A stretch of 64,000 nt of DNA, from positions 1,024 to 65,023 of the forward strand of contig CAZPWZ010000001.1 of NCBI GenBank assembly GCA_964590675.1. Reading direction: 5' to 3'. This DNA is from an uncultured Draconibacterium sp. GTDB taxonomy: Bacteria > Bacteroidota > Bacteroidia > Bacteroidales > FEN-979. The stretch's first letter is position 1; the number at the start of each line of letters is the position of its first letter. The notes below the pieces were generated by a model that worked only from the letters and a program-made list of their open reading frames with translations, ran no database searches and was not told where the DNA came from. The translations under genes and the position numbers were made by a program. Below, in pieces: positions 21,720-39,919 of this stretch.

Positions 21720-24179
21720 TCCTTTGCAGTCCTTGGACAGAATCCTTTGATAAGACAGGAGAACATGGAGAAATTGTTTTTAGTAGCGTTCTAGCAGTCC
21801 TTGGACGGAATCCTTTGATATGAGTCTTACGCAAATGACACAATTTCTTTGTTTGTGTTTCAGCAGTCCTTGGACGGAATCCTTTGATAAGAAAACTACT
21901 GAACAATTCTAACAACGCTTAAATTACGTTTCAGCAGTCCTTGGACGGAATCTTTTGATAAGAGAAACCTTTAAAACCATACGATATGACAAATTTTCTG
22001 TTTCAGCAGTCCTTGGACGGAATCCTTTGATAAGGTACTTAAAACCTGTTCTTATGAAAACAAAAGTCGTTTCAGCAGTCCTTGGACGGAATCCTTTGAT
22101 AAGCAATCAAAATAAACGAAAGCAATGAAAAAGATTACGTTTCAGCAGTCCTTGGACGGAATCCTTTGATAAGTCCACGATCCCGATGGCAAAATAAAGC
22201 AAAAAGTTTCAGCAGTCCTTGGACGGAATCCTTTGATAAGATTTTTTGCTACGAAGGAAACTCCTGTTTAGAATCAAGTTTCAGCAGTCCTTGGACGGAA
22301 TCCTTTGATAAGCGTAAAGAGCTCCGCCAGGCACAAAGAAATTCGTTTCAGCAGTCCTTGGACGGAATCCTTTGATAAGAAAGAAAATGAAAACACTGAC
22401 AAATTTCCATTTTGTTTCAGCAGTCCTTGGACGGAATCCTTTGATAAGATTTATAGCATACTTTATTTCTAATGTATGTTACTGATTCAGCAGTCCTTGG
22501 ACGGAATCCTTTGATAAGAAAAAAGCTCTTATGAAAAAACTGTTTCAATTTGTTTCAGCAGTCCTTGGACGGAATCCTTTGATAAGTTTTCGCTGGGACG
22601 ACCTGGAAGAAACTGCTTCGTTTCAGCAGTCCTTGGACGGAATCCTTTGATAAGACCCTTTTAAAAATGAAAAAAGTATTCCAGGCGTTTCAGCAGTCCT
22701 TGGACGGAATCCTTTGATAAGGTTAAAAATCTCTTTAAATTTTCATTATGGAGCAAGTTTCAGCAGTCCTTGGACGGAATCCTTTGATAAGATTTACAGA
22801 GAAGTAATGCTGAATCTATCACACTTGGTTTCAGCAGTCCTTGGACGGAATCCTTTGATAAGTTTTGCTCTTTATATTCATATGTTGTTTTATCGCTGTT
22901 TCAGCAGTCCTTGGACGGAATCCTTTGATAAGTTTAATCACTTTTCCCTTGATGAGTTTTTTATTCGTTTCAGCAGTCCTTGGACGGAATCCTTTGATAA
23001 GGAAGTGTTTGCTAGCTATGTGCTAGATTCTGTTCGTTTCAGCAGTCCTTGGACGGAATCCTTTGATAAGATGACAAAACATATCACCTGAAATGGAGTC
23101 GAACGTTTCAGCAGTCCTTGGACGGAATCCTTTGATAAGATGATCGAAGATTGAAACCAAATTGAAACGAATTGTTTCAGCAGTCCTTGGACGGAATCCT
23201 TTGATAAGTTATTGAAAGATTACAGCACAAGTGGTTTCCGTTTCAGCAGTCCTTGGACGGAATCCTTTGATAAGTTATTGAAAGATTACAGCACAAGTGG
23301 TTTCCGTTTCAGCAGTCCTTGGACGGAATCCTTTGATAAGAAAATAAAGAAAGGAAGTAACTATGCAAAAAGTATAGTTTCAGCAGTCCTTGGACGGAAT
23401 CCTTTGATAAGAAATTTGGAGGAGGACACCATGGATTACTACAACGTTTCAGCAGTCCTTGGACGGAATCCTTTGATAAGAAACCAATTAAAAATGCAAT
23501 CGATGGAAACGACCGTTTCAGCAGTCCTTGGACGGAATCCTTTGATAAGCTCTATCGTCGTGCTCATCCGGTATGGTATTCGTTTCAGCAGTCCTTGGAC
23601 GGAATCCTTTGATAAGAAATTATATAATTCAGTTCACACCAAACCAAAACCGTTTCAGCAGTCCTTGGACGGAATCCTTTGATAAGAACTTTGAGCAGAA
23701 AGGCGAGGCAGAATATGCCTAAACTGTTTCAGCAGTCCTTGGACGGAATCCTTTGATAAGTTAGAGAAAAATTTGTATGTAAAAATCCACAATCGTTTCA
23801 GCAGTCCTTGGACGGAATCCTTTGATAAGAAACGAAAGCAATGAAAAAGAAGATTACAATGCGTTTCAGCAGTCCTTGGACGGAATCCTTTGATAAGGAT
23901 CTTATATATATTCACAAATCTAAAAAATGACGTTTCAGCAGTCCTTGGACGGAATCCTTTGATAAGAACAGTTTTCAATCCAAATGGTATTTGGGAAACT
24001 TTTGTTTCAGCAGTCCTTGGACGGAATCCTTTGATAAGTTCAGATTTTCCCAGGAAAAGGCCATCAGGTTATTTTGTTTCAGCAGTCCTTGGACGGAATC
24101 CTTTGATAAGATACTCCAGAAAAAGAATAACAACAGCAAATTTCGTTTCAGCAGTCCTTGGACGGAATCCTTTGATAAG
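21720..24179 (-). CRISPR. CRISPR array, 36 repeats / 35 spacers. Plus-strand repeat GTTTCAGCAGTCCTTGGACGGAATCCTTTGATAAG (35 nt). Spacers 31-39 nt.
   Basis: Repeat starts were located by hand from 21720 to 24145 with a 66-74 nt period. Repeats at 21720, 21788 and 21928 are degenerate (trailer end), so the leader is at 24180+. Transcript-sense repeat is CTTATCAAAGGATTCCGTCCAAGGACTGCTGAAAC, ending in a GAAAC-type 5'-handle. Confidence 0.97.
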
Positions 24180-24639: not shown

Positions 24640-24924
24640 TTAAACAACAATCACCTGATCCATTCTGTCATTTACCCTTCCTATCCCCGACCTCTTAGGT
24701 ACACACGATTTGCAAAGATAATAATACAGTACACAATCCTCCGTTTCTTTTATCATATTTTTAAGTCTGATTTGTAATTTCATTAACTGACCTTGTGTTA
24801 CCAAACACTCGAAAACACTGTAATTGATGCGCATGCCAATGGCTTCAAGTGTTTTGGCAACCTTTGACCTGCGTTTGTCATCAGCAATATCATATGCGAT
24901 GACCCAGTACTCCTTGTCTACCAT
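24640..24924 (-). CDS. cas2: CRISPR-associated endoribonuclease Cas2
   Basis: YWVIAYDIADDKRRSKVAKTLEAIGMRINYSVFEC is the classic Cas2 N-terminus. 94 aa. Overlaps the RT-cas1 stop. Confidence 0.9.
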   Translation of the reverse strand: MVDKEYWVIAYDIADDKRRSKVAKTLEAIGMRINYSVFECLVTQGQLMKLQIRLKNMIKETEDCVLYYYLCKSCVPKRSGIGRVNDRMDQVIVV

Positions 24925-27203
24925 TTGTGAATATAGGATTTGTAATGTGGTGTTAAATCCAAAAGATAATCCCTTAAATTCCGGGCCTGGTGGTAAATTA
25001 TCTCGAATAACCTCATTTCAATGCCCCGGAATAATTCAATACCATTCAATCGCTCAATGACTTTGGTAGCCAATATTTTCTTGGTGTAAGCATCTAACAA
25101 CCCATTTTCACATTTTAACCTGGGATTCTTCATTAGCAAAGCAAACACCGGACGGTCAACTGCCTGCTGTCTGAACTCTTCTATAAAATCATAAACCAGC
25201 GAGGGCCGATTGTTTTCGGGCTTGTGAAGATAGCTTAGATTCGGGTTTAACCTCGTTCGAACCAGGGCTTCGGTAATTCGTCCATACAGAATTCCATAAC
25301 CATAATTCAGCATGCAATTGACCAGATCTGTAGCTCCCTGGCGTTCTCTTTTTTCAAAAGAGTTCTTTGTATTGATTATGATTGCCATAGTTTCCCAATA
25401 GTTCGTCGCCGCAAGACCTTCCATCGCAAATGCTTTCATGCGAAAATCATCCAGTTCTTCTTCCTCCAGCGCCAATATTTCATCAGCATATTTTATCATT
25501 GAATCACATGCTTTTACCACGGCCGACTCATAGCCTGTAATCCTGCTCTTGTAGTATTTACCGTAATATTTAATAAGGTTGACCTGGTTTGATATTTTCG
25601 CACGAACAATTTTCCGGATAAGATAAAAGCATTTCCCATTTGAATAACTTTTCAACTGGGCAAGTCCATTGGATTCTTCAAACCATTCGGGTTGATGAAT
25701 GATTGCATAAGGTTTCCCGTCATGACCTAAAAAATTGATTGAAATATGATATTCAGCGCATGCAGCAATTACATTTGACGAAAAAACAACGCCTTCACCC
25801 TGAATAATAATGGACTTCAAATTCAGCAGCGGAATCTCCTGAACTACTACATCTTTGTGTTTGACAACAATCCTCCCCTCCTGTTTACCAATCCAGGTGG
25901 ATGGTGTATTTACAACAAGATCGAAACCGGAGGATTCGAGTTTCTGATATTCCCGTTTCCGCTTTTTAACCCCTTTTACACTGCTGAAGGCTGCAGATGA
26001 TTGTTTAGCTGGTTTTAGCGTAGCTTTTTGGTTACGCCTAATGGATAATTGAGACTCAATGTACTCTCGTTTTTTAAAATTATGTTGTTTACCAAAGAAA
26101 TCAAATTTTGTTAATTCAAGGATGACCTTTTTCATTTGAGTTTCTGTACAATGTTCAATATTGGCTTTATGTCGCAGAACCGACATCAACTCATCATCAA
26201 GCAAGCACAAGGTTTCCTGCGGGACCAACTTTGCATAAAAAGTCGTTATCCCTATCAATACTTCGTGGAGTTTTTGTGTGATTAGCCCCTCTCCGATCTG
26301 TGCTGCTTCGGTCATTTTGGATACAAGTCGTTTATATTTGCGCTCGGAAAGTGATAAACCTGTCCCGGAAAAACTTATCCCGAGAAATTCAAAACCTTTT
26401 TCGACTGGAATAACTTTACTTCCTTCATTAAGATTCAGTTGCAGGTGTGATGTAATAACAGAAATTGCGTGGTTTAATGCCCTGACAGCTTCCGTTTCGC
26501 TCTTGCAAAGTATGATGAAATCATCCGCGTACCTGACATAACCAAACTGATTATCAACCATGGTTTTATCAAGAAGGTAGAGATAAAAGTTCGCAAGCAT
26601 AGGCGATATCACACCTCCCTGAGGAATGCCTTTGGTAGAGTCTTTCCAGGAATAATTTCTATTCACCCTCCCCATCGAAACAAACATCCTGATAATTTCT
26701 ACCATACCGGGACTTTTTAAAAAAGAGAGGAGTTTGCTATAGAGAAGATGATGTGGTATCGTATCGAAGAAATTGTCGATATCGCAAACAGCCAGCCAGG
26801 TTAAGTTCTCTTTTGTTATTAAGTGTTGTACCCGACAGATCGCTTTTACTGCTCCCTTTTTACTTCGATAGGCATAACTGACATTGAGGAAACTCTTTTC
26901 AAAAATGGGTGTTAGCACAAATGAAGCCGCCGTTTGTACAATTTTATCATTGATCGTAAGCAGCCCCAAGGTTCTTTTTTCTTTCTCATTCTTCGGAATT
27001 CTAGCCTCTAAATAGGGCTGCTGAATATATTTGCCGCTTTCAAGCAATGCAGCTAACTGCTCAATCTGTTTTTCGGCATGTTGCTGGTAATTTTCTACGG
27101 TTTGATGATCAATGCCCCCGGCTGTATGCTTCATTTTGACCCTTTGCCAAGCCAGGTTCAATGTTTCTTTACTGCAAAATTTTTGAAAAAGCGGGTCATT
27201 CAT
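24918..27203 (-). CDS. cas1: Reverse transcriptase-Cas1 fusion protein
   Basis: The N-terminal half carries group-II-intron-like RT motifs: DIDNFFDTIPH, GIPQGGVISPMLANFYL and VRYADDFIILC (YADD at 26520-26531). The C-terminal half carries Cas1 motifs: NCMLNYGYGILY and LSYLHKPENNRPSLVYDFIEEFR. Confidence 0.9.
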   Translation of the reverse strand: MNDPLFQKFCSKETLNLAWQRVKMKHTAGGIDHQTVENYQQHAEKQIEQLAALLESGKYIQQPYLEARIPKNEKEKRTLGLLTINDKIVQTAASFVLTPIFEKSFLNVSYAYRSKKGAVKAICRVQHLITKENLTWLAVCDIDNFFDTIPHHLLYSKLLSFLKSPGMVEIIRMFVSMGRVNRNYSWKDSTKGIPQGGVISPMLANFYLYLLDKTMVDNQFGYVRYADDFIILCKSETEAVRALNHAISVITSHLQLNLNEGSKVIPVEKGFEFLGISFSGTGLSLSERKYKRLVSKMTEAAQIGEGLITQKLHEVLIGITTFYAKLVPQETLCLLDDELMSVLRHKANIEHCTETQMKKVILELTKFDFFGKQHNFKKREYIESQLSIRRNQKATLKPAKQSSAAFSSVKGVKKRKREYQKLESSGFDLVVNTPSTWIGKQEGRIVVKHKDVVVQEIPLLNLKSIIIQGEGVVFSSNVIAACAEYHISINFLGHDGKPYAIIHQPEWFEESNGLAQLKSYSNGKCFYLIRKIVRAKISNQVNLIKYYGKYYKSRITGYESAVVKACDSMIKYADEILALEEEELDDFRMKAFAMEGLAATNYWETMAIIINTKNSFEKRERQGATDLVNCMLNYGYGILYGRITEALVRTRLNPNLSYLHKPENNRPSLVYDFIEEFRQQAVDRPVFALLMKNPRLKCENGLLDAYTKKILATKVIERLNGIELFRGIEMRLFEIIYHQARNLRDYLLDLTPHYKSYIHKW

Positions 27204-28186
27204 AATACAATCCGAAACTTTCCATATCCAAAAGTAGCGGTGGAGCCAACATGGATCCGCTCACCGGCCCAAAGCAGCTCCGACCAGGGTTCAATGGCTC
27301 CGGTATAGGTTATCTTACCTGTATAACCGTTAAGCCATTTCGCTTTTTCTTTCGTTTCAGTACCTGCGGAATTTCTTGTTTCCGAAGAGAAATGTTTGTG
27401 TTTTTTCCACACCAGGTGATGATCTTTGATGTTAATCCCCGATTCGATCTCACTTAAGGACTTTTCAATATCAAACCATGGCATTTTACAATAAATGGTC
27501 GCGATAAGTGCCAATCTTTTGAATATGGCTTTTGCAAAACGATCAAATTCAGGGATTGATTCTTCGTAATTTCCATTCGACTCAAGCCTCAGTGGCGTTT
27601 CAAAATGTAGCGTGACCTTGTTGTGGAGGCTTCGTTCCCGGGTGTTGGAAAGTGCATGAACAAAGGGCAACCCTATTGCAGGAAGGATCTCGAAAACCCC
27701 TGACTGATTTGTAAAGGAGAGATCAACCGGGTGAAATTTCTTATGGCCTTTGCCGATTCCTTCTTCACCCATTGCCCTTATTATTCCTGGTATATATGGT
27801 AGAAAGATTTCAGCGCTTTCTCCTATCAGTATCAGTTCGAACCAGAACCGGCTACCCTTGTCGAATTGGGCAGAGTTATCGGGCATGGGGTTAATGATAT
27901 AGGATTTTGGAGGTTTAGTGTACCTTCCATACCCTGGGTGATTCTTTTGAAGTTCATTGGAGAATAATTGAAAAAATGGACATTCGAATCGTACTTTACA
28001 CTGTTCGCATGGGGGCATCGTGTCAAATTTACAAACCTGTTTGCGAAATGCATCGCCCATACAACCTCTGAATGTAGCCCCCTTTGTGAACCTGGGCAGG
28101 ATAATCTCTTCATCGGCTTCGAAAGTAATCAAAAGCCTGATATAAGTAATCGATTCGATGATCTGGTCGATGATTCCGAAGGCCAT
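27200..28186 (-). CDS. cas6: Cas6-family crRNA endoribonuclease (stand-alone, Cys-rich N-terminal region)
   Basis: C-terminal glycine-rich loop HVGSTATFGYGKFRIVL. RAMP-like size (328 aa). ATGA overlap with RT-cas1. Cys cluster CKFDTMPPCEQCKVRFEC. Confidence 0.65.
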   Translation of the reverse strand: MAFGIIDQIIESITYIRLLITFEADEEIILPRFTKGATFRGCMGDAFRKQVCKFDTMPPCEQCKVRFECPFFQLFSNELQKNHPGYGRYTKPPKSYIINPMPDNSAQFDKGSRFWFELILIGESAEIFLPYIPGIIRAMGEEGIGKGHKKFHPVDLSFTNQSGVFEILPAIGLPFVHALSNTRERSLHNKVTLHFETPLRLESNGNYEESIPEFDRFAKAIFKRLALIATIYCKMPWFDIEKSLSEIESGINIKDHHLVWKKHKHFSSETRNSAGTETKEKAKWLNGYTGKITYTGAIEPWSELLWAGERIHVGSTATFGYGKFRIVL

Positions 28187-28265: not shown

Positions 28266-29639
28266 TTAAGGATATAAAACATCATCAACGAAGTTGAATT
28301 TCCCGAATCCCCTCCTTGATTTTGCTCCCAGTCCAAACTCGCTGATCAGTCGTTTGATCAGCGTTAACTTATCCTCCTTACTTATCAACCCATCCACCAG
28401 CACAAGGTTAAATTGAAAAACAACACCCGGTAGTACTTTTAAAAAGGGGATGCTGGCCTTGGGACTTTGGTGGGGCTGGCCTTCCGGAGTAATACTGTCA
28501 ATCCCTAGAAACCTGCCACCCATGTTGTCAGAACGAACAGGAAACGAAGTCAAAAAATTATCTCTGGCCATCTTTTTGGTATCTGAACCAGACCTCTTAT
28601 TCTCTTTTGGAAACTCAAATAATTCATATAATAAATCATTTACTAGAATGCCATCTCCCTTTTCTTTCCTCGGATATGCGAGTAGGTTCATCTCTGACAG
28701 AATCTCAACAATGATTTCTGGCTGTTCCTCAAAAACACTTCGCAAAGCACCTTTCAGCGCTTCTCCTGGCAATACGGGCAACCCGGAGGTTTGATCAAAG
28801 TACATTCCCAATAATAGCTCACCTTTTGCGAAAGGTGTCCTCTCCGGAGAATCCGGAGTTGGGATGCCAAAATCATGCGGAATTCCTGTCCCGGATAAAA
28901 AACCGTCACCCGTTGTCCGCGCCAGGAAACTGAAATGAGTGATTAAATTACTCCTGTGTAATAACTCCTGGTCCAGTTGTAATTCGCCTATTTCCTGCTT
29001 GTATTCCGTCAGATTAAGAAGGCAAATGAGTTTATTCTGATTTTTAAAATAATTGGTATCACAATGGTCGAGTTCATCGAATGTATTCGGATAGTAATAT
29101 GTATAATAATACTGGCCTATATTAATTTTGTTTATCGCTTCGTATGAAGGAGAAACCAATGGTGGCATCTTTTTTTGCCTGATCAACTTGGGTTCTTCGC
29201 ATTCCAGCTGAGTAAAGGCACCGGCGGCTTTTTTCAGAACGGTCAATGCAGTCTCAATGAGTTCCCTTGCCATCCATCCCTCACCCCTGGTTTGCTTATT
29301 TTCGACAAAAAGTCGTAATGACATATTTGACGGGATGTTCCGGTTGCAGGAACAATCTCCTTGCCTACTCTCGCAATCCGGACATCCGTATCGCATCAAC
29401 TCTTCAGCAATAGCAACTTTCAAAACGGCCTTTGACAATTCTATATCCGACTTATACCTTCCATTACCAAAATTCCAAACCACCAGTGGCAATTCATAGT
29501 AATGCAACATGGTGAGGAACCCGGATATTTTATTGTCAAAAGTTTCCGGAATGCCCCATTTATGATCTTTTTCTTTCACAATTTCGCACTCATGCAGAAC
29601 AGCAAAAGCAGTTTTTACGATTTCTTCCGAGAATGGCAT
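28266..29639 (-). CDS. cmr6: Cmr6-like RAMP with an ~200-aa helical N-terminal extension (possible Cmr5/Cas11-Cmr6 fusion)
   Basis: The C-terminal half has GLPVLPGEALKGALRSVF and a terminal G-rich loop GLGAKSRRGFGKF. It sits last in the effector block. No separate small-subunit gene is present. Confidence 0.6.
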   Translation of the reverse strand: MPFSEEIVKTAFAVLHECEIVKEKDHKWGIPETFDNKISGFLTMLHYYELPLVVWNFGNGRYKSDIELSKAVLKVAIAEELMRYGCPDCESRQGDCSCNRNIPSNMSLRLFVENKQTRGEGWMARELIETALTVLKKAAGAFTQLECEEPKLIRQKKMPPLVSPSYEAINKINIGQYYYTYYYPNTFDELDHCDTNYFKNQNKLICLLNLTEYKQEIGELQLDQELLHRSNLITHFSFLARTTGDGFLSGTGIPHDFGIPTPDSPERTPFAKGELLLGMYFDQTSGLPVLPGEALKGALRSVFEEQPEIIVEILSEMNLLAYPRKEKGDGILVNDLLYELFEFPKENKRSGSDTKKMARDNFLTSFPVRSDNMGGRFLGIDSITPEGQPHQSPKASIPFLKVLPGVVFQFNLVLVDGLISKEDKLTLIKRLISEFGLGAKSRRGFGKFNFVDDVLYP

Positions 29640-29645
29640 AATTGA

Positions 29646-30551
29646 TTATTTAAGAATATTAAAATAACATGAACCATATCCCACGGATTTATTCGCACCT
29701 GCCTGGATACATTTACCATTCACTTCAGTTTCGAAGATGGTAATGTGGTCGGCGATTTCTGAATTGTCTTTTTTATACAGTACATCCGGTACACGTAAAT
29801 GCGTGATAAACCTTGTTCCCCGGGGGAGAAACTGTTCAACCCAAAGGTTGTTACTCTCGCCCCAATCAATCTTATTCCGGTGTTTAACCGGCAAGGCATC
29901 ATCGTTTGTCAGTTTTTCAAAATGATGTGGCTGGGTTATTACCAGGGTTTTTACCGTATCAGATTCATCAAAGACCACGTTACTTAACCACTCAGGCAAT
30001 ACTTTCGAGGGACCCTCAGTGAGTTGTGTGACAAATTTACCAAGTGTGGTCATTCGATTTATATTGATGTTTGAACCTGTATAAGCAAATATCGATGGAG
30101 TTTCTGATACATAATGTTCATTCCTGAAACTGATATAAAACTTGTGAAAATCATTCATAACAGTAGCATCAGGCTTGTAAATATCGATATCTTCATAAAG
30201 ACGGTCGAGGATTTCCCAGGATGTTACCAAAACAGTTGTGTTCATTCCTAAGGGGACAGGATGGATGGGTATCGGAATAGCCAGCAAATCAAGTTGCTTC
30301 GGGCCGTACTGCCCGACAGATAGCGCTGCACCGTTAAATCCCTCGGCTCCAAATGCTGCATCGATGAACTTCTGATTAGATGGTTTTTGCTCGAAATGCA
30401 TTTTCAGGGCCCCTTTGAAACTGGTACTTTCCACGCATGGAATGCCCCCCACATCTCGTTGCACTACTTTATCAATGCTGTCGGTCGAAGCGTTGGCCCG
30501 ACCCGGATGAAGATTTTCGATTGCCTTGGCTTGAAGAAAATAAAATTTCAT
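29646..30551 (-). CDS. cmr4: Cmr4 (Cas7-family backbone subunit)
   Basis: ENLHPGRANASTDSIDKVVQRDVGGIPCVESTSFKGALK matches the Cmr4 N-terminal pattern. C-terminal loop GANKSVGYGSCYF. Confidence 0.7.
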   Translation of the reverse strand: MKFYFLQAKAIENLHPGRANASTDSIDKVVQRDVGGIPCVESTSFKGALKMHFEQKPSNQKFIDAAFGAEGFNGAALSVGQYGPKQLDLLAIPIPIHPVPLGMNTTVLVTSWEILDRLYEDIDIYKPDATVMNDFHKFYISFRNEHYVSETPSIFAYTGSNININRMTTLGKFVTQLTEGPSKVLPEWLSNVVFDESDTVKTLVITQPHHFEKLTNDDALPVKHRNKIDWGESNNLWVEQFLPRGTRFITHLRVPDVLYKKDNSEIADHITIFETEVNGKCIQAGANKSVGYGSCYFNILK

Positions 30552-30558
30552 AGTTCAG

Positions 30559-31683
30559 TTATTTTATTCGGGTGAAACAATTATATCCAATCTTCTTAAA
30601 CTCGTCGTTATTGAGGAATGAAGTGTCGTCATCTTTCAGAAAAAGCACGGAACCTCGTTTCAACATGTACTTATTTTCTGACCGCCGGGTACTCCCTGAA
30701 ATTTCACTTTCCTTTGATTCCTTCTGGTTGATTGCGGCATAGTCCGTTGTATTTTTTACCGAAGATCGTATGTGCCTGAAAGGGGTGAATTGGTTTATTG
30801 CAAATAAGCAGCGTTCTTCAAAACCTGCTGAAACCATTGCGTCGCTCAATAGTAAAATTTTGTTCCCTTTGAGAGAACTATCATGTAAACACATTTGAAA
30901 ATCAGGCATCTCATCTGTTTCCTGAAAATGAACCAATACCTCTTTTTGTTCTTTTCCCATCACCGAAAAAATACGACTTTCGTTAACGGGCAATGTAGAT
31001 CCATCCGGAACCATTTCATCCACCTCCATCCAAAACCCGAAGGAGTATTCTTTTGGCATAACAAGAAACTCCTGCTTGTAAAAGGCCTCATCATCGGGGG
31101 TTCCATCCTTACTGTTGCGGTTGCCAGAAATCAAATGCCTTTTGAACACCTCCACGAGCGGGGTGAAAATGCCCGATGAATCGGTAAAGCCATCGGCAAA
31201 TCCCTCTTTGGCATTGAAGCCATCCAGGTAAAAAGCAGGGGTTCCCCCTTCGTTTCCATCCTTTTGTAAAAAAAGATGCGCTTTCCCAACATTCTTTCTT
31301 AAGGCAACGGGGATGAACTTGTTTTTACATGTTTCCACGAACTCGTTGGGGCGGTAAAAGAGTGGGGTCTCTTTATGAAAAAGAAATACCGGTGAAATAT
31401 CACGAATACGGCCGGTGGCACCTACCTGTTCGCTGTTTTCCCCAATCAGGTCAATAGCTTTATTAATCGCTTCATCACTGATCTTCCCACCGGCAGGGTA
31501 TAAAATACCATTGATTTGCAGTAAAAGATAACGCAGGAATCCGCGTACACCCGTTTGTTGTGGAAAATAATTACTATGTAGAAAATAGTTAGAGGTGTTT
31601 CCGAGTGGTCCCGTCTCTTCAAGGCCCTGGCCGAAGAAGAGAGAACCTGTGAATTTTACTTTAACCAGGAAGTATTTACTCAT
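30559..31683 (-). CDS. cmr3: Cmr3 (Cas5-family subunit)
   Basis: Position between cas10 and cmr4, with an 8-nt overlap with cas10. The N-terminal VKFTGSLFFGQG resembles the Cmr3 start. Confidence 0.55.
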   Translation of the reverse strand: MSKYFLVKVKFTGSLFFGQGLEETGPLGNTSNYFLHSNYFPQQTGVRGFLRYLLLQINGILYPAGGKISDEAINKAIDLIGENSEQVGATGRIRDISPVFLFHKETPLFYRPNEFVETCKNKFIPVALRKNVGKAHLFLQKDGNEGGTPAFYLDGFNAKEGFADGFTDSSGIFTPLVEVFKRHLISGNRNSKDGTPDDEAFYKQEFLVMPKEYSFGFWMEVDEMVPDGSTLPVNESRIFSVMGKEQKEVLVHFQETDEMPDFQMCLHDSSLKGNKILLLSDAMVSAGFEERCLFAINQFTPFRHIRSSVKNTTDYAAINQKESKESEISGSTRRSENKYMLKRGSVLFLKDDDTSFLNNDEFKKIGYNCFTRIK

Positions 31684-33238
31684 TTGTTTCGGAATTTAAA
31701 AAGTCAATAAAACGTATTGCAAAATAGACTAACTCAGCCTTTTTATCGGCCTCGGATGGAGCTAAATAGGCTTCTGAGATAACCTCACCCAGTCGTTTCC
31801 AATATCCTGCCTTTTTGAAGTCATGTTCACTGAAGTTTTTCTCGAGAAAATTGGACACCGTGCCACCATAAGCAACGGCATATTTCAGGAAAGGATGATA
31901 TTCAGCACTTTTTCTTCGGAATGAATTGTACTCCTCTTTTTCATTTTCGTTGACAACGCGAAAATCGATAATAAATGGAAAGATTTTGCCCAAATAAAAG
32001 AGATCTGATTTTTCAAAGCCTGTTTCGATTTGTTGACCAGAGTGTTTTTGCAGGGTTATGAAAAGTGAATTCTTTTTTTTGAATTGTCCCGACTTGGCCC
32101 TTTGAAGATTAAGGTAAGAGTTTTCAAAACTTTCCTTCAACGGATACTTGAAGAAATTCACCGAAATCCCAAAGGAAAAGGAGGGATCCACGATCTCATT
32201 GCCAAGTAACTTCGTGATGGATTCTTTATGCTTGGTTTCGAACTCCGTATCCAGTTTTTGGACCAATTCAAGGATGTTTTTCGCGTCTTTTCCATGGGGA
32301 TTGGCAAGCGGAGCAAAGAAGAGCAGGTCATCACCCCCGATGTAAACGGGAAATCCACCATAGGCTTTGATAATCTTCGCCGATGCAATACCGAATTGAT
32401 AAAGTGTTGCTGAGAAATCCATTATTTTATCGGCATCATGTCCGATAGAGGTAACAATTTTGCCCATATTATCGCCATCAGCATGTACCAGCGCAAAATA
32501 TTTGTGGAAGGGCTTGAACTCTTTACCAAAGGTGGTTTTACAGTTATTGGTAAACTGTTCAAGGCGTTCTTTTATCTCTTTAGATTGGGTTCTCTCGTAA
32601 CGATCAACATCACTGAAATGCTTTTTTATAAATGGCATGAAGTTATCGTGGCCGGAAAGAGATACAGCCGAAATTTCAAATAAAGATTCAAGGGTTTTAC
32701 TTTGCGGCCATCCGCTCTTCTTGTACAAGATAGTTTCGTTTACTTTTTCAAGGTATTCAAGAAGAACCTGGTTAATAGGAGGCATCTGGTTGAAGAGCTC
32801 CATGTTGTCTAATTGGGTAAAGAGCTTAAGGATGATGTTTTCTCCTTTTGGTATTTTGGCTTTGTAACCATGAATTTGGATGGCGTTTTGTAAAGTTTTA
32901 AGCACCTCCTCCCTTTTGGATTTTTCGGTATGTTTAAAGATGTTACAATAATCTGCTGCAATCTCGGTGAATACCTCTTTGATTTCATTGTGGATCCGTT
33001 CGATGGTCAGTTTTTCACCACTTTTATTCATTTCAAGGATAATCCTGTCGGGATATAAGCCAACAGGATATATTGCATCCTCTACATGAGGCAGGATGAC
33101 CCATTTTTTCAGACGCAATACCACCAGTTTAAAGATGGAAGAAAAAAGGAAACTGGCACCCCAGAGTTCGCGGGTTCGCCGTGCCTGCTTCAGGGTGGGG
33201 TAAATGGGACCAATGGTCAATCCGATGTATTCGCTCAT
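31676..33238 (-). CDS. cas10: Cas10/Cmr2, short form lacking the HD domain, cyclase palm motifs intact
   Basis: Begins MSEYIGLTIGPIYPTLKQARRTRELWGASFLFS, the motif that normally follows the HD domain. HADGDNMG is present, as is GGDD (codons 301-304, nt 32327-32338, checked as GGG GGT GAT GAC). Confidence 0.8.
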   Translation of the reverse strand: MSEYIGLTIGPIYPTLKQARRTRELWGASFLFSSIFKLVVLRLKKWVILPHVEDAIYPVGLYPDRIILEMNKSGEKLTIERIHNEIKEVFTEIAADYCNIFKHTEKSKREEVLKTLQNAIQIHGYKAKIPKGENIILKLFTQLDNMELFNQMPPINQVLLEYLEKVNETILYKKSGWPQSKTLESLFEISAVSLSGHDNFMPFIKKHFSDVDRYERTQSKEIKERLEQFTNNCKTTFGKEFKPFHKYFALVHADGDNMGKIVTSIGHDADKIMDFSATLYQFGIASAKIIKAYGGFPVYIGGDDLLFFAPLANPHGKDAKNILELVQKLDTEFETKHKESITKLLGNEIVDPSFSFGISVNFFKYPLKESFENSYLNLQRAKSGQFKKKNSLFITLQKHSGQQIETGFEKSDLFYLGKIFPFIIDFRVVNENEKEEYNSFRRKSAEYHPFLKYAVAYGGTVSNFLEKNFSEHDFKKAGYWKRLGEVISEAYLAPSEADKKAELVYFAIRFIDFLNSETNE

Positions 33239-33285: not shown

Positions 33286-34908
33286 TCATTTGCTTTCTTG
33301 TACTGTTAATTGCTGGTATTTATCACAGAGAGGGTGTCCGGCTTCATACTTTTTAGTGTTTGTAAGAATTTCAACAAAGCAATCTTTTAATCCGTGCAGC
33401 GGGATTTCGACTCCAAGTCTGCTGAAACCCTTAAAATTCAAGGCGTTCTTTTTATAAATAAATTCAAACCTTGCATCACGGAGGATTTCATTTACCGAAT
33501 CAACAATTATGAAAATCGTATTAAAAAACACCTTGAATTGTACAGGTGATGGTATGCGCTCGATATCCTTGTTCTCTGGTTTCACAGAAATGGTTATTTC
33601 TTGTTTATTATTAATCCATTTTCTATCCAGCAACCGATATTCATATTTTTCCGCCAGGCCTAACAGTACTCTGAAAAATTGATAAAAAGTTGGATGAGGT
33701 GGATCTGTTTCAAATCGCATTTCACCATTATTTTCTCTTAAATTTCTTTTAAGTAATTTAAAATCTTGCTCGTGGTCAATTTTCAATGCTTCTTTAATAA
33801 ACCTTTTTTCCCAACCGGTAGTATTGCCATATTGTCCGCAGAAATATTGCCAAAGTAATGATTTTTTATATGGCTTATTTTTTCCGCTTTTAAGTAGTTT
33901 CCAGTGATCCGTAATTATTTGTTCTAAAGATGAAAAATAATAATTGGTATCATTAAGTGCCTTTTCTGAAATCTCTTTTTGATGATGAGATGTATCTTTG
34001 AATAAAATATTTGTCGGATGTTCAACAATTATCTTATCCTTAAATTTCCATTCGCCATTTAACTCGTATCCCCAATACTTAGAATTAATAATGTCTCTCA
34101 AGCGTTGGAATTCCTCCTTTGAAGATCCATTTGGAATACTCAACTCCTCTTCTTTCTTACAAAAAGACACGAGATGTGTTGTACACAATGTAGAAATCTC
34201 CAATTCATCAATATTATGGCAGAAAACAATTTTATCCGAATTTTCTTCTTCCTTATCAGAATTAAAATACTTAAATAAAACTTTCTTAATGTCGTTTTCC
34301 GTTGACTCCTTCAGAGTAAAACAGCCAAACCCTTTTGAGCTATTATATCCCAAACCAGTAAGGATGAAAAACTCAGAAAGAGAATCCACAATAAATTTCT
34401 GAAGCCCTTTTGACGAGCAAGAAATAGCACCATGTACCTGCCGGTTTTCATAAAGAACATGAGCACGGTCCTGCATCATCGTCTTTCCGAGATATGAGGC
34501 TGTTTCGTCCACCTTGCATTCAAATGACAAATTGTAGTTAAAAGCGATGTTTTCCAGTTCTTTTTTGTTTCGGAACCAGCCGGCAAACTCACAACCACCT
34601 TCTTTACCCGCCCTGCACTTGCCCGTCTCCCCATCTTCATCCTGGCTCAGTACGCATGCCCCCGCATTCCATACTTTATCCCTGCAAATACCACAGGCTA
34701 CCCTGAACTTATTCCTGAATGCCTTTTCGGCTTCTTCCCCCTTATATCCGGTGTTCCTTTCTGCAAGAAATCTATTTAGCATCGGGGTTATTGCTTTGGA
34801 CTGTAATCCAGACCAGGACTCCAATCCAAGATGATGGATGATCGGGGTATGTTGAATTAAAGTGAAACTATACTTAGACATCTTAAAGCGGTTTTGGTAA
34901 AAATTCAT
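33286..34908 (-). CDS. cmr1: Cmr1-like RAMP protein with Cys cluster and large C-terminal extension
   Basis: Sits upstream of cas10 as in cmr operons. G-rich loop GLGYNSSKGFGCF at about residue 190. Cys-rich insert CGICRDKVWNAGACVLSQDEDGETGKCRAGKEGGCEFAGW. The remaining ~330 aa are unassigned. Confidence 0.45.
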   Translation of the reverse strand: MNFYQNRFKMSKYSFTLIQHTPIIHHLGLESWSGLQSKAITPMLNRFLAERNTGYKGEEAEKAFRNKFRVACGICRDKVWNAGACVLSQDEDGETGKCRAGKEGGCEFAGWFRNKKELENIAFNYNLSFECKVDETASYLGKTMMQDRAHVLYENRQVHGAISCSSKGLQKFIVDSLSEFFILTGLGYNSSKGFGCFTLKESTENDIKKVLFKYFNSDKEEENSDKIVFCHNIDELEISTLCTTHLVSFCKKEEELSIPNGSSKEEFQRLRDIINSKYWGYELNGEWKFKDKIIVEHPTNILFKDTSHHQKEISEKALNDTNYYFSSLEQIITDHWKLLKSGKNKPYKKSLLWQYFCGQYGNTTGWEKRFIKEALKIDHEQDFKLLKRNLRENNGEMRFETDPPHPTFYQFFRVLLGLAEKYEYRLLDRKWINNKQEITISVKPENKDIERIPSPVQFKVFFNTIFIIVDSVNEILRDARFEFIYKKNALNFKGFSRLGVEIPLHGLKDCFVEILTNTKKYEAGHPLCDKYQQLTVQESK

Positions 34909-37358
34909 TTCTCGATAAAAAACTGGAAGGAAAGTATATATAATAGTAACAAAATTGCAGAAAAATAGACAAGATACTTTCCTTTGATTTTAAAATATGT
35001 CTTTTGATTTTTTTTAAGATAGATTGTTTTATCCAAATTATAGAAACCAATGGCCGAAAATCCACTCAGTAACACAATCGTAATGAGCAGTAGGACACTA
35101 TCTTTATAGAATCCAATCCATTGAATAGAATCCAATGCAGGCAATTCTTTAAAAAACCTATTATTCAATAAGTTAAAAAGAAATGTCGGAACAACGATTA
35201 AAGCCGCAAGAATAGAAAGTCGACGTGTGCTTTTATTGATTTGCTCCGTTTTCTTTAAGTTGATGTAGTTGAAAAATTCCCTGATCTCCTTTTTTATTTC
35301 TTTTGCATGCCTTTCAATTCTCAAACTCTTTTGCAACATATCATACAGTTCAATACCTTGTTCCTGTGCTGAAATTTCATGGTGATAAATCCTGTTAATA
35401 TATTGTACATATCCTTTGTATAATTTGTCAACTGTTGTAAATTTCTCAATCAGATTATTTGAATCAAACTCATCACCGAATGTAGCAATATCAGATGAAA
35501 ATCTTAAAATTGAGGCCCGTTGCAACAATGTCAACATAACCATTTTTTCATACAATGTCCTAAAATGAGTAAGTAACACATTCCTTGAAAATGAATTATC
35601 CGCTGTTAGCACCATGAAAGAATAACGAGTAACACCGAACAGGGTACCGTATTTTTGCCATCTTGGATATGTATGTTGTTTCAATAATTTTTCCTGCATT
35701 CTTCTATTCTGACACGTACTATCTCCAGAGTCAATAAAAATGAACTCATGCCATGCGTCACTTCTCAAATATTTTTCATATTCCTGGGGACTTTTGCTGA
35801 TTTCCGCGTGACCGTCATTAATCGCCCAGCACATAGTGAACATCCGGTCATCAATCACGGGTTGAGGGTAAAGGTTCTCCCTAAAGTCAAACAAAAGATT
35901 TTTAATGAATCGGGCCGGTTGCCAGAACTTTGATACTCCAAATTCTGAAAAATCTTCCCTGTATCTTACAGGATCTCCATCAAGACCGGTAATTTTTATT
36001 TCGTCCGCTATTTCATTAAAGTTTTTTGGCTGCTCAACTCCCGATATCTTGTCAATAAACGGAGGAAAAATTCTGCGTCCAAAATGATTGATCTTTTTAA
36101 TATCGCTGAAATGTGAATATTGTGTATTGATCAAATGAAAACTTAAAATACCCGTACCTGTGGAAAAAAAGTCAAGAGATAATTTTTCGATTGATAGCGT
36201 GAACGGTTGATCAATACCTCTGACTTTAATTTCATAGCATAATTGTCTATCATGAGTTTCCGTTCTTTCATAATGTTTGATTCCCCATATTAATTTCGGC
36301 GTATTATAGATCAGGGGATGAATAAATTCATAAAAATAATTTCGTTCATTATACTGCTCAACTGCTTTATCCTTTTTGCCGGAAGAAGATGCCTGAACCC
36401 ATACATCTTCTTTATTTGAACCGCTTTGCTTATCCTTTTTCGAGTCTATATTCTCCCATGTCAATTTGTTGGTAAAGTTCTTTTCTTTTGGATTTTCAGG
36501 TTTTTCCCAACGAAATGGAAACATGAATATATGATAACTCTTTGCTTCCAATGCTTTTATATAATCAATTATTTCAGAATTAATCCACGATGCCTCTTCT
36601 TTAGCACACTTAACTGCATCCAACCCGAAGTAGCCAGGATTTGCTCCCCCCGTATATGCTTTATTTTCCTTAATCTGAGATTGGTACTTTTCACCTAATT
36701 CTGTGCTTTTTTTTCCGTAATATGTAAAACTCTGCTGATGCCTGATAAACAATTCATCAAATGGATAAAGCTTGTCGGTAATCGTTGAAAATCGTGGTGT
36801 AAGTGATTCGACAACTGTTACTTTGCCTATTTTAAAGGAGTGTGATTGTATGGATTCATCTGCCAACCGTTCATCTTCTTTAGTGACACCCTGTGCCTTC
36901 TTATCTTCATACCTGACTTTTTTTATCTCTTCTTCAGTCGCCCCCATGGCTTCGAGTGCAGGTATATAACCCTTGTCATTTGCTGCAGCCAAAAGCTGAT
37001 CCCGGTTAAGCGAAAATCCGAGCAGTTCTGCAACTTGTTCTATAGATGAATGTAAATCTTTTTTATCGTTATGGTGATCTATCTCGCGATAGTGCTTTGG
37101 AAGGGGGCAATCCTGTTTAAGTTCAATGCCAACAAACACATTTTCATCATTAAAAACAGATGCATAACTACTCAATGGGGCATTGTCCCATTGCAAATCA
37201 TTATCCTCAACCTTGCTACCCTTGAGCATCTTCTTGATTTCCTCCATTTCAAGATCATGCCCGCCAAGCAGGAATATCATTTTATTGGAATCCTTATGTT
37301 CTTTCATAATAATATATTTGTCCCTTGGATAGTTGCTATGCTGATTGAATTCTTTCAA
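34905..37358 (-). CDS. corA: DHH-family phosphoesterase (NrN-like) fused to a CRISPR-associated CorA-like membrane protein
   Basis: N-terminus: LLGGHDLEME, REIDHHNDK (DHH at nt 37071-37079) and YTGGANPGYFG. C-terminus (nt about 34908-35225): RRLSILAALIVVPTFLFNLLNNRFFKELP aligns with the CorA TM1-GMN-loop region, but GMN reads LNN. Two further hydrophobic helices follow. The ORF-track start is TTG at 37358; the first ATG is at 37307. Confidence 0.6.
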   Translation of the reverse strand: MKEFNQHSNYPRDKYIIMKEHKDSNKMIFLLGGHDLEMEEIKKMLKGSKVEDNDLQWDNAPLSSYASVFNDENVFVGIELKQDCPLPKHYREIDHHNDKKDLHSSIEQVAELLGFSLNRDQLLAAANDKGYIPALEAMGATEEEIKKVRYEDKKAQGVTKEDERLADESIQSHSFKIGKVTVVESLTPRFSTITDKLYPFDELFIRHQQSFTYYGKKSTELGEKYQSQIKENKAYTGGANPGYFGLDAVKCAKEEASWINSEIIDYIKALEAKSYHIFMFPFRWEKPENPKEKNFTNKLTWENIDSKKDKQSGSNKEDVWVQASSSGKKDKAVEQYNERNYFYEFIHPLIYNTPKLIWGIKHYERTETHDRQLCYEIKVRGIDQPFTLSIEKLSLDFFSTGTGILSFHLINTQYSHFSDIKKINHFGRRIFPPFIDKISGVEQPKNFNEIADEIKITGLDGDPVRYREDFSEFGVSKFWQPARFIKNLLFDFRENLYPQPVIDDRMFTMCWAINDGHAEISKSPQEYEKYLRSDAWHEFIFIDSGDSTCQNRRMQEKLLKQHTYPRWQKYGTLFGVTRYSFMVLTADNSFSRNVLLTHFRTLYEKMVMLTLLQRASILRFSSDIATFGDEFDSNNLIEKFTTVDKLYKGYVQYINRIYHHEISAQEQGIELYDMLQKSLRIERHAKEIKKEIREFFNYINLKKTEQINKSTRRLSILAALIVVPTFLFNLLNNRFFKELPALDSIQWIGFYKDSVLLLITIVLLSGFSAIGFYNLDKTIYLKKNQKTYFKIKGKYLVYFSAILLLLYILSFQFFIEK

Positions 37359-38290
37359 ACATAAGTTAACTTATTATTATCAAGCTTACTTTCTTCATCA
37401 AATGTGTAAGCGATTAGTTTACCCCCTTCAGCCACACTATAATCTAAACAACAAACATTATTTTTGTATACAGAGGGTTCTCCTTTCAGACAATAATGAC
37501 CAAAAAAAACATTTTTATCATTGGGAGAATAATAATCAGTGGCTTCAAATTCAGCACTATTAACAGGTTCTTTGGATAAATCTATAACGGGTTCAGCACT
37601 TCTTGAGTTTTGAGTCCTTTCAAATGGACTTTCCCACCATTTAATTCGAATTTCATTTCTTTCCGTCCCATCTATATCCCTAAAGAATAGTCCGTCTGGC
37701 ATCTTCATTTCTTTCCCTTTCAATGCTTGATTAATCGCTTCATTTAAAGTTGTTCCGACTTTGGCCGATTGAGCAATAAGGAAGTCAGGCAGTCTGTCGT
37801 CTATTAAAGTTCTTCTAAGATATTGAATGTTATTGTTGTCCCAACAGGCGTGAACAGCTCTGAACTTCTTAGTTTCATAAAATAGAGGTAATGTTTTAAA
37901 CCAATCTACATATTTTTCGTATTCTTCTTGTCTGTTCTGAAATTGTTTGAGTGTTTCATAATGTTGAATGATATTTTTAATTAAATGCTTTCTAAGATGT
38001 CCTCCCTCAGTATCTTGCATATGGAAACAAAGTGCATTGTATTCATGATTTCCCATTAAAGCAATTGCATTTTCACTGTCAACCATTGCTTTCACTATTT
38101 CAAGAGTTTTTCTTATCTGAGGACCCTTGTCGATGTAGTCACCAACAAATAAAACTGTTCTTTCCGGATGGGCATAAGTTCCCCCTTTTTTCGCATATCC
38201 TAACTTCAGGAGCAACTCTTCAAGTTTGTTTGCGTATCCGTGTATATCTCCGATAAGGTCTATCATGTTTTGTTGGTCATCTATAAACAC
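37355..38290 (-). CDS. Calcineurin-like metallophosphoesterase (PrpE/ApaH-like), first gene of the cas operon
   Basis: IGDIHGYANKLEELLLKLGY, VLFVGDYIDKGP and LMGNHEYN are motifs I-III of PPP/ApaH-type phosphoesterases. The stop overlaps the corA-like start (TTGA). The ORF-track start is GTG at 38290; ATG 38266 (MIDLIGDIHG) is more likely. Confidence 0.75.
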   Translation of the reverse strand: MFIDDQQNMIDLIGDIHGYANKLEELLLKLGYAKKGGTYAHPERTVLFVGDYIDKGPQIRKTLEIVKAMVDSENAIALMGNHEYNALCFHMQDTEGGHLRKHLIKNIIQHYETLKQFQNRQEEYEKYVDWFKTLPLFYETKKFRAVHACWDNNNIQYLRRTLIDDRLPDFLIAQSAKVGTTLNEAINQALKGKEMKMPDGLFFRDIDGTERNEIRIKWWESPFERTQNSRSAEPVIDLSKEPVNSAEFEATDYYSPNDKNVFFGHYCLKGEPSVYKNNVCCLDYSVAEGGKLIAYTFDEESKLDNNKLTYV

Positions 38291-38842: not shown

Positions 38843-39919
38843 ATGTTCTGTGCTTGTCATTTAACAGGCAGACAAATGGGAATGCACACAAGAATAAATG
38901 AGAAAATATTGGGTATGAAGGCATTCAAACAACAATTCATATTGCTCATTTTCATTGCAGGAATGGTCATCGTTCCTGCGTTACACGCACAAAATCTTAA
39001 AATATACCAGATTGATGTTGAACAAGCCGACGCTACGCTGATTATTGCCCCCAACGGGAAAACTCTGCTCATCGATTCTGGTAAGAACCCGCATGGAAAC
39101 AAGATCGAAGCGATTTTAAAACAGGAAAATATCAAACAAATTGATGTTTTTGTTTGTACTCATTATGATGAAGATCACCTGGGGGGCATTGACGAGATAG
39201 CAAAGGGTGGGACGTTTAAGATTGTTGAAGTATTTGATCGGGGAGAAAAAGATCAATATATAAAACTTAAAACGCCTTCAAAATCCTTTAACAGTTATGA
39301 ACATCATGTTGGATTTAAAGCCCAGCAGTTAGATCCCGGAGAAAGTATTGATCTTGATAGTATGGTAAAGATAACCTGCGTTGCTTCCAATGAGCGTGTC
39401 ACGAGGAATTCTTCAGTTGGCAATGGCATAGATGAAAATGATAAAAGTATAGCCTTGCTGCTCCAATTTGGCAATTTCGAATATTTTACCGGAGGCGACA
39501 TCGCTTATAGTACCGAGAGAAAGATTGCAGAAAAAGACCTGGTGACGGATGTGGATGTTTGCAAGGCCGATCATCATGGTTCACACCTGAGTTCGGATTG
39601 TGATTTTATGGAGGAGTTAAATCCGACTGTTATCATCATCTCCAATGGTTCACATAACGGGTTTCAACATCCCCGGAAAGTTACTTTGCAGTGTTACAAA
39701 AAACTCTCCGCTCACCCAACAGTATTTCAAACCAACAAATATATTGCAGGAGGAAACAAAGCAGGAAATGTTCCCGACCAATTTATTGCCGATCCCGAAT
39801 CGACCGATGAGGATGGAACGATCCTGGTTGATGTGAATCTGGCTCAAAATTGTTATGAAGTCAAATATCGGACTGTAAAACTGAAGTACTTTATAAAAAA
39901 CCGGATACAGAAGGATTGA
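38843..39919 (+). CDS. Secreted metallo-beta-lactamase-fold hydrolase (ComEC/Rec2-related MBL domain); probable start ATG 38915
   Basis: The signal peptide MKAFKQQFILLIFIAGMVIVPALHAQ begins at codon 25. CTHYDEDHLGG (HxHxDH-like) and KADHHGS motifs are present. Confidence 0.7.
   Translation: MFCACHLTGRQMGMHTRINEKILGMKAFKQQFILLIFIAGMVIVPALHAQNLKIYQIDVEQADATLIIAPNGKTLLIDSGKNPHGNKIEAILKQENIKQIDVFVCTHYDEDHLGGIDEIAKGGTFKIVEVFDRGEKDQYIKLKTPSKSFNSYEHHVGFKAQQLDPGESIDLDSMVKITCVASNERVTRNSSVGNGIDENDKSIALLLQFGNFEYFTGGDIAYSTERKIAEKDLVTDVDVCKADHHGSHLSSDCDFMEELNPTVIIISNGSHNGFQHPRKVTLQCYKKLSAHPTVFQTNKYIAGGNKAGNVPDQFIADPESTDEDGTILVDVNLAQNCYEVKYRTVKLKYFIKNRIQKD

Follow-up and report, generated by a model that had tools for sequence, protein, structure and literature searches.

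A gene on the minus strand of a 64,000-nucleotide stretch of DNA from an uncultured Draconibacterium sp. (the whole stretch is hereafter called the window) very probably encodes a single-chain NrN-CorA protein, an ancillary effector of a type III-B (Cmr) CRISPR system that signals with SAM-AMP (S-adenosylmethionine-AMP). A first-pass annotation had correctly recognised a SAM-AMP-type CRISPR effector from the raw sequence, and had placed a signal-degrading DHH enzyme and a CRISPR-CorA effector in one polypeptide. Our analysis agrees: the N-terminal part superposes on NrN, and the PADLOC model of CRISPR CorA matches with an E-value of 1e-109. The reference for this reading is the type III-B system of Bacteroides fragilis, in which Cas10 makes SAM-AMP, CorA binds it and NrN cleaves it specifically (Chi et al. 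2023, Nature 622:826; PMC10600005).

The open reading frame (ORF) at 34905..37358 is genuine and intact, and a 78%-identical homologue is found in the same operon of a sister locus (L001). Counted from the TTG at 37358 it has 817 aa, and residue numbers throughout refer to this maximal ORF. The TTG is merely the longest possible start, as in-frame ATGs lie at aa 18 (37307) and aa 27 (37280). Since homology to NrN begins at aa 18 and the identical 791-aa database protein P0001 has its annotated start at the aa-27 ATG, the protein is probably 791-800 aa long. The ORF contains every peptide quoted in the first-pass annotation, namely GGHDLEME (aa 32), IDHHNDK (aa 93), TGGANPGYFG (aa 236) and RRLSILAALIVVPTFLFNLLNNRFFKELP (aa 712). 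As sequence comparisons, the matches of this ORF to NrN and to the DHH_CorA and CRISPR CorA models are far beyond chance. The domain identities, conserved residues, fold, predicted topology and locus given below come from direct analysis of the window and its relatives. The gene and its soluble parts are laid out as follows:

34905..37358, minus strand: nrn-corA fusion gene; stop codon at 34905-34907, likely start ATG 37307 (800 aa) or ATG 37280 (791 aa)
36564..37307, minus strand: NrN domain, aa 18-265, a predicted DHH-family SAM-AMP phosphodiesterase (PDB, profile and Foldseek matches, conserved columns)
37248-37250, 37071-37079 and 36975-36977, minus strand: predicted NrN catalytic residues E37, D94-H95-H96 and D128, respectively (column conservation)
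35319..36563, minus strand: CRISPR-CorA soluble (cytoplasmic) domain, aa 266-680, putative SAM-AMP sensor (PADLOC CorA, invariant columns, AlphaFold2 (AF2) model)
36072-36077, minus strand: R428-R429, equivalent to R152/R153 of B. fragilis CorA
35847-35852, minus strand: D503-D504, equivalent to D219/D220 of B. fragilis CorA
34908..35318, minus strand: stalk helix and membrane module, aa 681-817 (Pfam, family profile, hydropathy, AF2 model)

The N-terminal domain is, by sequence and predicted structure, a close homologue of NrN and a predicted CRISPR SAM-AMP phosphodiesterase. Residues 18-251 match the solved NrN structures 9lq9, 9lqa/9lqb and 9lqc (phmmer against PDB, E 3.6e-50), a profile of 70 homologues matches NrN with an E-value of 9e-93, and the PADLOC model DHH_CorA ('DHH family hydrolase, CorA associated') covers aa 26-265 (E 3e-74). 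Scans of the fusion protein with Pfam and NCBIfam gave no DHH match, which is why the first-pass annotation had the DHH motifs alone to go by. The AF2 model of the full-length protein (predicted local distance difference test score, pLDDT, 87.7; predicted template modelling score, pTM, 0.81) was compared with solved structures in Foldseek. It matched 9lqa, the E21A variant of NrN with SAM-AMP, with an E-value of 8e-24, a template modelling score (TM-score) of 0.89 normalised to the target, a root-mean-square deviation (rmsd) of 2.1 Å and 40% identity. Across 9lqa, 9lqb and 9lqc the TM-scores were 0.89-0.90 and the rmsd 1.9-2.1 Å, at 40% identity.

The match to 9lqa and the residue alignment speak against the refuting outcome named in the first-pass annotation, a failure of the DHH-like residues to superpose on a DHH active site. 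NrN residues E21, D85-H86-H87 and D119 correspond to E37, D94-H95-H96 and D128 here, and are kept in at least 112 of 121 aligned homologues. Mutation of D85-H86-H87 in B. fragilis NrN abolishes immunity (PMC10600005), while E21 and D119 are the residues altered in the crystal variants 9lqa and 9lqc.

About 400 aa between the DHH and membrane parts had previously been left unassigned. Because the PADLOC CRISPR CorA model (PDLC01174) matches aa 271-765 (E 1.2e-109, model positions 4-433 of 446), this stretch is now identified as the N-terminal, soluble domain that sets CRISPR-associated CorA apart. In B. fragilis CorA, the substitutions R152A/R153A and D219A/D220A each lead to a loss of immunity (Chi et al., PMC10600005). 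We used the CorA of B. hominis (locus L051), which has RR at 152/153 and DD at 219/220, as a numbering proxy for the B. fragilis protein. D503, D504 and R428 do not vary among 67-70 homologues of the window protein, and R429 is conserved in at least 90% of them. In profile match, these residues and locus type the CorA part agrees with the CorA-1 cluster of type III-B SAM-AMP effectors.

The AF2 model of aa 263-817 (pLDDT 87.6, pTM 0.82) predicts a CorA-like fold with an α/β cytoplasmic domain, a long stalk helix and a transmembrane (TM) hairpin, and pLDDT exceeds 90 across most of the CorA soluble domain. Foldseek ranks 1-19 for this model consisted solely of CorA or CmaX, and the cytoplasmic domains of ZntB followed at ranks 24-25. 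The best match was 4i0u_A (E 6.4e-4, probability 0.96), in line with the CorA-like architecture proposed in the first-pass annotation. Neither sequence nor fold searches turned up a solved structure of a CRISPR-CorA soluble domain.

The fusion guarantees that NrN is present at the channel in equimolar amounts, at an NrN:CorA ratio of 1:1. At the junction of the two parts the full-length AF2 model has no low-confidence linker, and this confidently modelled junction fits a fixed geometric relation between the NrN and CorA activities. No physical interaction between NrN and CorA of B. fragilis was detected in vitro, which would make the single chain a good object for studying how the two cooperate. 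Such a confidently modelled 1:1 chain could also aid structural work on why CorA-mediated immunity requires SAM-AMP degradation.

The type III-B locus and a proposed mechanism

The fusion gene heads a minus-strand operon that continues with cmr1, cas10/cmr2, cmr3, cmr4, cmr6, cas6, a reverse transcriptase (RT)-cas1 fusion and cas2, followed by a CRISPR array. The Cmr complex that the first-pass annotation had assumed is therefore encoded next to the fusion gene, directly downstream of it. The parts of the locus are:

33286..34908, minus strand: cmr1, 540 aa (PADLOC Cmr1, E 1e-40); its start overlaps the corA stop
31676..33238, minus strand: cas10/cmr2, 520 aa, with GGDD at 301-304, D64 and E147
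30559..31683, minus strand: cmr3
29646..30551, minus strand: cmr4
28266..29639, minus strand: cmr6, 457 aa, matched to Cmr6 over aa ~234-448, with the N-terminal ~230 aa unassigned
27200..28186, minus strand: cas6
24918..27203, minus strand: RT-cas1 fusion
24640..24924, minus strand: cas2
21720..24179, minus strand: CRISPR array of 36 repeats of 35 nt, with 35 spacers of 31-39 nt

We found no match to an HD domain in the 520 aa of Cas10, and the GGDD motif is present. In an alignment of 66 Cas10 sequences, D64 corresponds to D70 of B. fragilis (D in 66 of 66) and E147 to E151 (E in 65 of 66). This acidic pair biases the Cas10 acceptor site toward SAM over ATP (PMC10600005). Because Cas10 combines the lack of an HD match with GGDD and D64/E147, the locus is predicted to be a type III-B system of the SAM-AMP type.

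These observations bear on the choice of signal. An effector that answers another nucleotide would respond either to cyclic hexa-adenylate (cA6), the signal suggested for the CorA clade of Actinomyces, or to SAM-AMP2, as in type III-D2, and CorA clades with other proposed or additional ligands do exist (PMC11229360; PMC13294483). However, the fused domain is 40% identical to an NrN crystallised with SAM-AMP, B. fragilis NrN cuts neither cA2-6 nor pApA, the equivalent of the D70/E151 pair favours SAM over ATP, and the locus is of type III-B without Csm6-2. We therefore consider another signal very unlikely.

Our proposal for how the SAM-AMP system works follows, by homology, the B. fragilis system with respect to the signal, the pentamer, gating, growth arrest and the physiological role of NrN. 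Foreign RNA would be bound by the Cmr complex, guided by CRISPR RNA, and Cas10, with its GGDD motif and with D64/E147 in the acceptor pocket, would join SAM and ATP to form SAM-AMP. The signal would then bind the CorA part in its cytoplasmic domain, at a site including R428/R429 and D503/D504. The CorA part is presumably pentameric, and binding of SAM-AMP may open or disturb the membrane module, upon which growth of the infected cell would stop. The fused NrN phosphodiesterase may limit basal toxicity, and may reset the channel or keep it responsive. Given NNR in place of GMN and a third membrane helix that would put the C-terminus outside the cell, any passage through the membrane, or its breakage, is unlikely to be a selective Mg2+ flux in the manner of CorA.

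The first-pass annotation had described the fused enzyme as a built-in off-switch. In B. fragilis, immunity depends on the activity of NrN or of a SAM-AMP lyase, which also makes CorA less toxic (PMC10600005, PMC12255297). The authors offered two explanations for this need, namely an off-switch or the prevention of channel desensitisation (PMC10600005, PMC12255297). Since immunity requires NrN there, the off-switch stands as one published hypothesis.

A membrane module with NNR in place of GMN

The membrane module of the fusion protein differs from canonical CorA in both its loop motif and its number of helices. Its elements are:

35166-35222, minus strand: TM1, aa 713-731 (hydropathy and AF2 helix)
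35157-35165, minus strand: NNR replacing GMN, N732-N733-R734 (profile column)
35034-35099, minus strand: TM2, aa 754-775 (hydropathy and AF2 helix)
between TM2 and TM3, minus strand: lysine-rich loop, aa 776-797 (hydropathy and charges)
34914-34967, minus strand: TM3 (extra), aa 798-815 (hydropathy and AF2 helix)

A profile of the family matches Thermotoga maritima CorA with an E-value of 1e-5, spanning the stalk, TM1, GMN, the loop and TM2. The region of RRLSILAALIVVPTFLFNLLNNRFFKELP had been read as the TM1/GMN/loop part of CorA. The profile column of the motif pairs exactly with G-M-N of T. maritima, and the window protein has N732-N733-R734 at this position. A pairwise alignment likewise pairs its LLNNRF with FWGMNQ of B. 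hominis CorA. Loss of the GMN motif, as claimed in the first-pass annotation, is thus confirmed, but its register was off by one, and the replacement is NNR rather than LNN.

Two further hydrophobic segments follow TM1, as had been noticed from the sequence, giving three helices in total; AF2 places helices at the same positions. No comparable hydrophobic segment was found by hydropathy in the fusion protein outside 713-731, 754-775 and 798-815. The loop between TM2 and TM3 contains seven K/R residues and the loop between TM1 and TM2 is neutral. From the three helices and these charges we predict that the N-terminus is inside and the C-terminus outside.

The GMN column is variable among the relatives of the window protein. 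In the best 120 homologues it reads GMN in 42 and GIN in 19, the remainder being other, and variants across CRISPR-CorAs include GIG, GMS, SAN, GMD and more. We also examined representative genomes, where the sample consisted of the best 80 of 257 related loci from GTDB representatives. G[MIVL]N is missing from roughly 20 of these 80 loci, and three helices are predicted in ~20-25, GMN being present in some of these and not in others. The NNR/three-helix module itself occurs in none of the 80. Instances were found among the 120 closest clusters, of which ~20 combine LL[NK]N[RK]FF with a third helix ending in LLxYLLSFQFF.

These NNR proteins fall into two groups: group A, with 780-817 aa, includes the window protein, and group B, with 900-950 aa, carries six insertions in the soluble domain. 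Groups A and B are 47% identical in the stalk and 37% in the TM region, where either is 17-41% identical to the GIN/GMN types. In the soluble domain, by comparison, the two groups share 34% identity, versus 42-46% with the GIN and the three-helix GMN types. Because the groups resemble each other in the stalk and TM region and not in the soluble domain, the module is conserved rather than decayed, and the region-wise identities hint at mosaicism, perhaps through exchange of the membrane module between lineages. We rejected a single clade for the NNR type, as a neighbour-joining tree of the soluble domain (no bootstrap) did not unite the two groups.

The NNR/three-helix module, with its LL[NK]N[RK]FF motif, lysine-rich inner loop and LLxYLLSFQFF helix, can tentatively be regarded as a distinct, selected pore variant, although we hold this to be possible rather than probable. 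If true, CRISPR-CorA effectors need no selectivity filter of the Mg2+ type, and the variant would offer a natural module pair for dissecting how CorA effectors harm the membrane. Selective Mg2+ conduction by the module is unlikely, given that NNR replaces GMN and a helix is added; the variability of the column in the family agrees. Together, the conserved GMN-less three-helix module and the variable GMN column argue that these effectors are not Mg2+-selective channels. We found no discussion of the GMN state of CRISPR CorAs in the searchable literature, and the term 'GMN' is absent from Chi et al. (PMC10600005).

Alternatively, the membrane part could be no gated pore but mainly an anchor holding the NrN nuclease, or else the Cmr complex, at the membrane, with the loss of GMN marking a loss of channel function. 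NNR in place of GMN and the high variability of that column across CRISPR-CorAs would suit such an anchor, and a 'membrane tethering' hypothesis was published by Shmakov et al. (10.1101/270033). However, the NNR module and TM3 are conserved between groups A and B despite a soluble-domain identity of only ~34%, which argues for a selected function beyond anchoring. For B. fragilis CorA, furthermore, both toxicity and binding of SAM-AMP have been shown, and immunity depends on its TM domain; the RR/DD residues of the ligand site are retained here. A mere anchor is therefore improbable.

The loss of GMN had also been taken to argue against a Mg2+ housekeeping role. Roughly half of the CRISPR-CorA relatives, which lie in the same cas loci, keep GMN or GIN, so losing the motif does not set this protein apart from housekeeping CorA. 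A housekeeping or decaying Mg2+ transporter of the CorA family, lying beside the cas genes by chance, might explain the weak Pfam CorA match and the name 'CorA family divalent cation transporter' that NCBI gives to some homologues. Its probability is nevertheless negligible: the protein has no GMN, three TM helices and a Pfam score below the cut-off, its whole-length match is to a CRISPR-specific CorA model, cas10 is found in every related locus with sufficient downstream flank and cmr1 in many, and the ORF is intact, with a homologue of 78% identity in the corresponding operon of L001.

Several points weigh against our reading of the gene as a SAM-AMP-gated membrane effector. The Pfam CorA family (PF01544) scores 20.9 bits against a cut-off of 27 (E 2.5e-4) and covers aa 654-727 only. 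TM-scores to CorA structures in Foldseek are low (0.17-0.27), which is to be expected when the model is a monomer with very long helices. The CorA studied experimentally in B. fragilis has a membrane part unlike the NNR/three-helix module, and the behaviour of the pore may differ as well. At the locus, no separate Cmr5 was recognised among otherwise present type III-B components, and the spacers had no match in a phage collection.

Distribution of the fusion and neighbouring genes

The NrN-CorA fusion architecture is not new, but already described and common: fused homologues number in the hundreds, and more than 100 clusters at 50% identity contain it. A word-indexed search gave 365 clusters with E < 1e-5, and most of the best 120 were 700-950 aa long and covered 85-98% of the query. 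An exhaustive search of 1.84 billion representatives at 50% identity yielded 2,635 relatives, of which 1,716 reach E ≤ 1e-10 and 851 reach E ≤ 1e-30. Among these 2,635, the fused form accounts for ~120 of the best 150, where we counted as fused those with at least 690 aa and, mostly, an alignment starting from query residue ~5-12. The 80 loci from representative genomes comprised ~15 with a fused gene, ~45 with a separate nrn immediately upstream and ~20 without NrN, which presumably carry DEDD or a lyase instead. Fused forms in this sample came from Bacteroidota, Campylobacterota, Ignavibacteriota and one archaeal metagenome-assembled genome. All related loci examined with enough downstream flank contained cas10, and many also contained cmr1. 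The window gene is thus a cleanly annotated further example of a known defence architecture, and neither the structural nor the GMN point would surprise specialists.

Some features of the cas genes and the array deserve separate mention. Cmr1 is ~100-130 aa longer than in L001 (443 aa) and in locus L002 (407 aa), and the best of two stretches matching the PADLOC Cmr1 model is aa 10-228. A possible fusion of Cmr5 into the 457-aa Cmr6 was considered; the N-terminal ~230 aa show no similarity to Cmr5 of L002. Cmr6 of L001 is equally long (475 aa). The array repeat reads GTTTCAGCAGTCCTTGGACGGAATCCTTTGATAAG on the plus strand, and its reverse complement ends in ...GCTGAAAC. The two outermost repeats (21720 and 21788), at the end distal to cas2, are degenerate, which identifies this end as the trailer. 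At 23174-23305 (plus strand), two neighbouring repeat-spacer units are perfectly identical, so that the spacer TTATTGAAAGATTACAGCACAAGTGGTTTCC occurs twice. A scan of the 64-kb window with Rfam gave no match.

Directly upstream of the fusion gene, on the same strand, lies another gene:

37355-38290, minus strand: calcineurin-like metallophosphoesterase, with weak matches to ApaH, PrpE and Pnkp phosphatase

Its stop apparently overlaps the TTG start of the fusion ORF, and we considered it as a third component of the system. The overlap vanishes with the likelier ATG starts, which leave a gap of ~48 nt, as in L001. The metallophosphoesterase has more than 7,500 homologues (E ≤ 1e-10), and the best of those listed are 70-75% identical, 303 aa long and come from many Bacteroidota. 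Three homologue loci have no cas genes, one of them (L085) lying beside AbiE and WYL genes, and the gene is absent from related CorA loci except the 78%-identical sister L001. It is most likely a conserved chromosomal flanking gene outside the CRISPR system.

Other genes near the locus include a nuclease-related domain (NERD) protein at 16799-17689 (minus strand) and a divergent metallo-β-lactamase-fold protein at 38843-39919 (plus strand), the latter with weak matches to models of metallo-β-lactamase proteins from defence systems (LmuA, Avs1a, PDC-M48B) and to the ComEC C-terminal domain. Beyond the trailer end of the array, at 18787-21513 (minus strand), a 908-aa protein joins an N-terminal response-regulator receiver to a HerA/TraD/FtsK-like P-loop ATPase. 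Its weak PADLOC matches are to 'mad8' and 'HerA, type III coevolved', and it could be a defence or a mobile-element gene. The NERD, metallo-β-lactamase-fold and 908-aa ATPase genes suggest a small neighbourhood resembling a defence island.

Farther along the window, a 1,654-aa secreted protease is encoded at 43964-48928 (minus strand), with Peptidase_C10 and a Spi inhibitor prodomain, FG-GAP and PKD repeats and a type IX secretion system (T9SS) Por_Secre_tail. This sorting domain, along with the taxa in which homologues of neighbouring genes occur, places the window in a Bacteroidota chromosome. A local G+C peak of 0.59 at 60001-62000, versus 0.36-0.49 elsewhere, falls inside a 1,035-aa ORF (59186-62293) with Fib_succ_major and fn3-like matches; this ORF has no Rfam match.

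Comparison with known systems

The window system most resembles the CorA and NrN of B. fragilis in that it combines a Cmr complex, a Cas10 without HD but with the D70/E151 pair and GGDD, the RR/DD residues of CorA, and E21, DHH and D119 of NrN. The NrN domain is ~40% identical to its B. fragilis counterpart and the CorA part ~36%, the latter measured against the B. hominis proxy. Unlike in B. fragilis, the window protein is one chain, and it has NNR where the B. hominis proxy has FWGMNQ. It also has a third TM helix after a lysine-rich loop, which is predicted to place the C-terminus outside. The window locus further differs in having RT-Cas1 and Cas6, and no NYN nuclease was seen in it.

Two descriptions of fused proteins preceded ours. 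Shmakov et al. 2018 (preprint 10.1101/270033) reported a DHH-CorA fusion, EDN71418.1, in Beggiatoa sp. PS, and Chi et al. 2023 (PMC10600005) reported NrN-CorA fusions in Aliarcobacter butzleri and relatives. Compared by description, these share with the window protein an N-terminal DHH or NrN domain, a C-terminal CorA and a type III-B locus. The fused Campylobacterota loci L073 and L074 keep GMN, whereas the window protein belongs to the subgroup with NNR and three TM helices.

The best fold match, T. maritima CorA (4i0u, 3jcf, 2iub), is a canonical pentameric Mg2+ channel with a homologous stalk helix, TM1, loop and TM2. In contrast to it, the window protein has no GMN, an extra TM helix, an N-terminal enzyme, a cytoplasmic domain of ~415 aa whose sequence is CRISPR-specific, and a Pfam score below the cut-off. 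Of the marks of canonical CorA/MIT proteins it shares the CorA-like fold and lacks a score above the Pfam threshold, GMN, and the arrangement of two TM helices with a cytoplasmic C-terminus. The lysine-rich stretch after TM2 recalls the basic C-terminal tail of canonical CorA.

Another CRISPR CorA fused to a second domain of a signalling pathway is CorA-Csm6-2 of Actinomyces (Hoikkala et al. 2024, PMC11229360). There, a CARF-HEPN RNase that cA6 activates is fused C-terminally, in type III-D loci without SAM-AMP-degrading enzymes. Unlike in Actinomyces, the partner in the window protein is N-terminal and is a predicted SAM-AMP phosphodiesterase.

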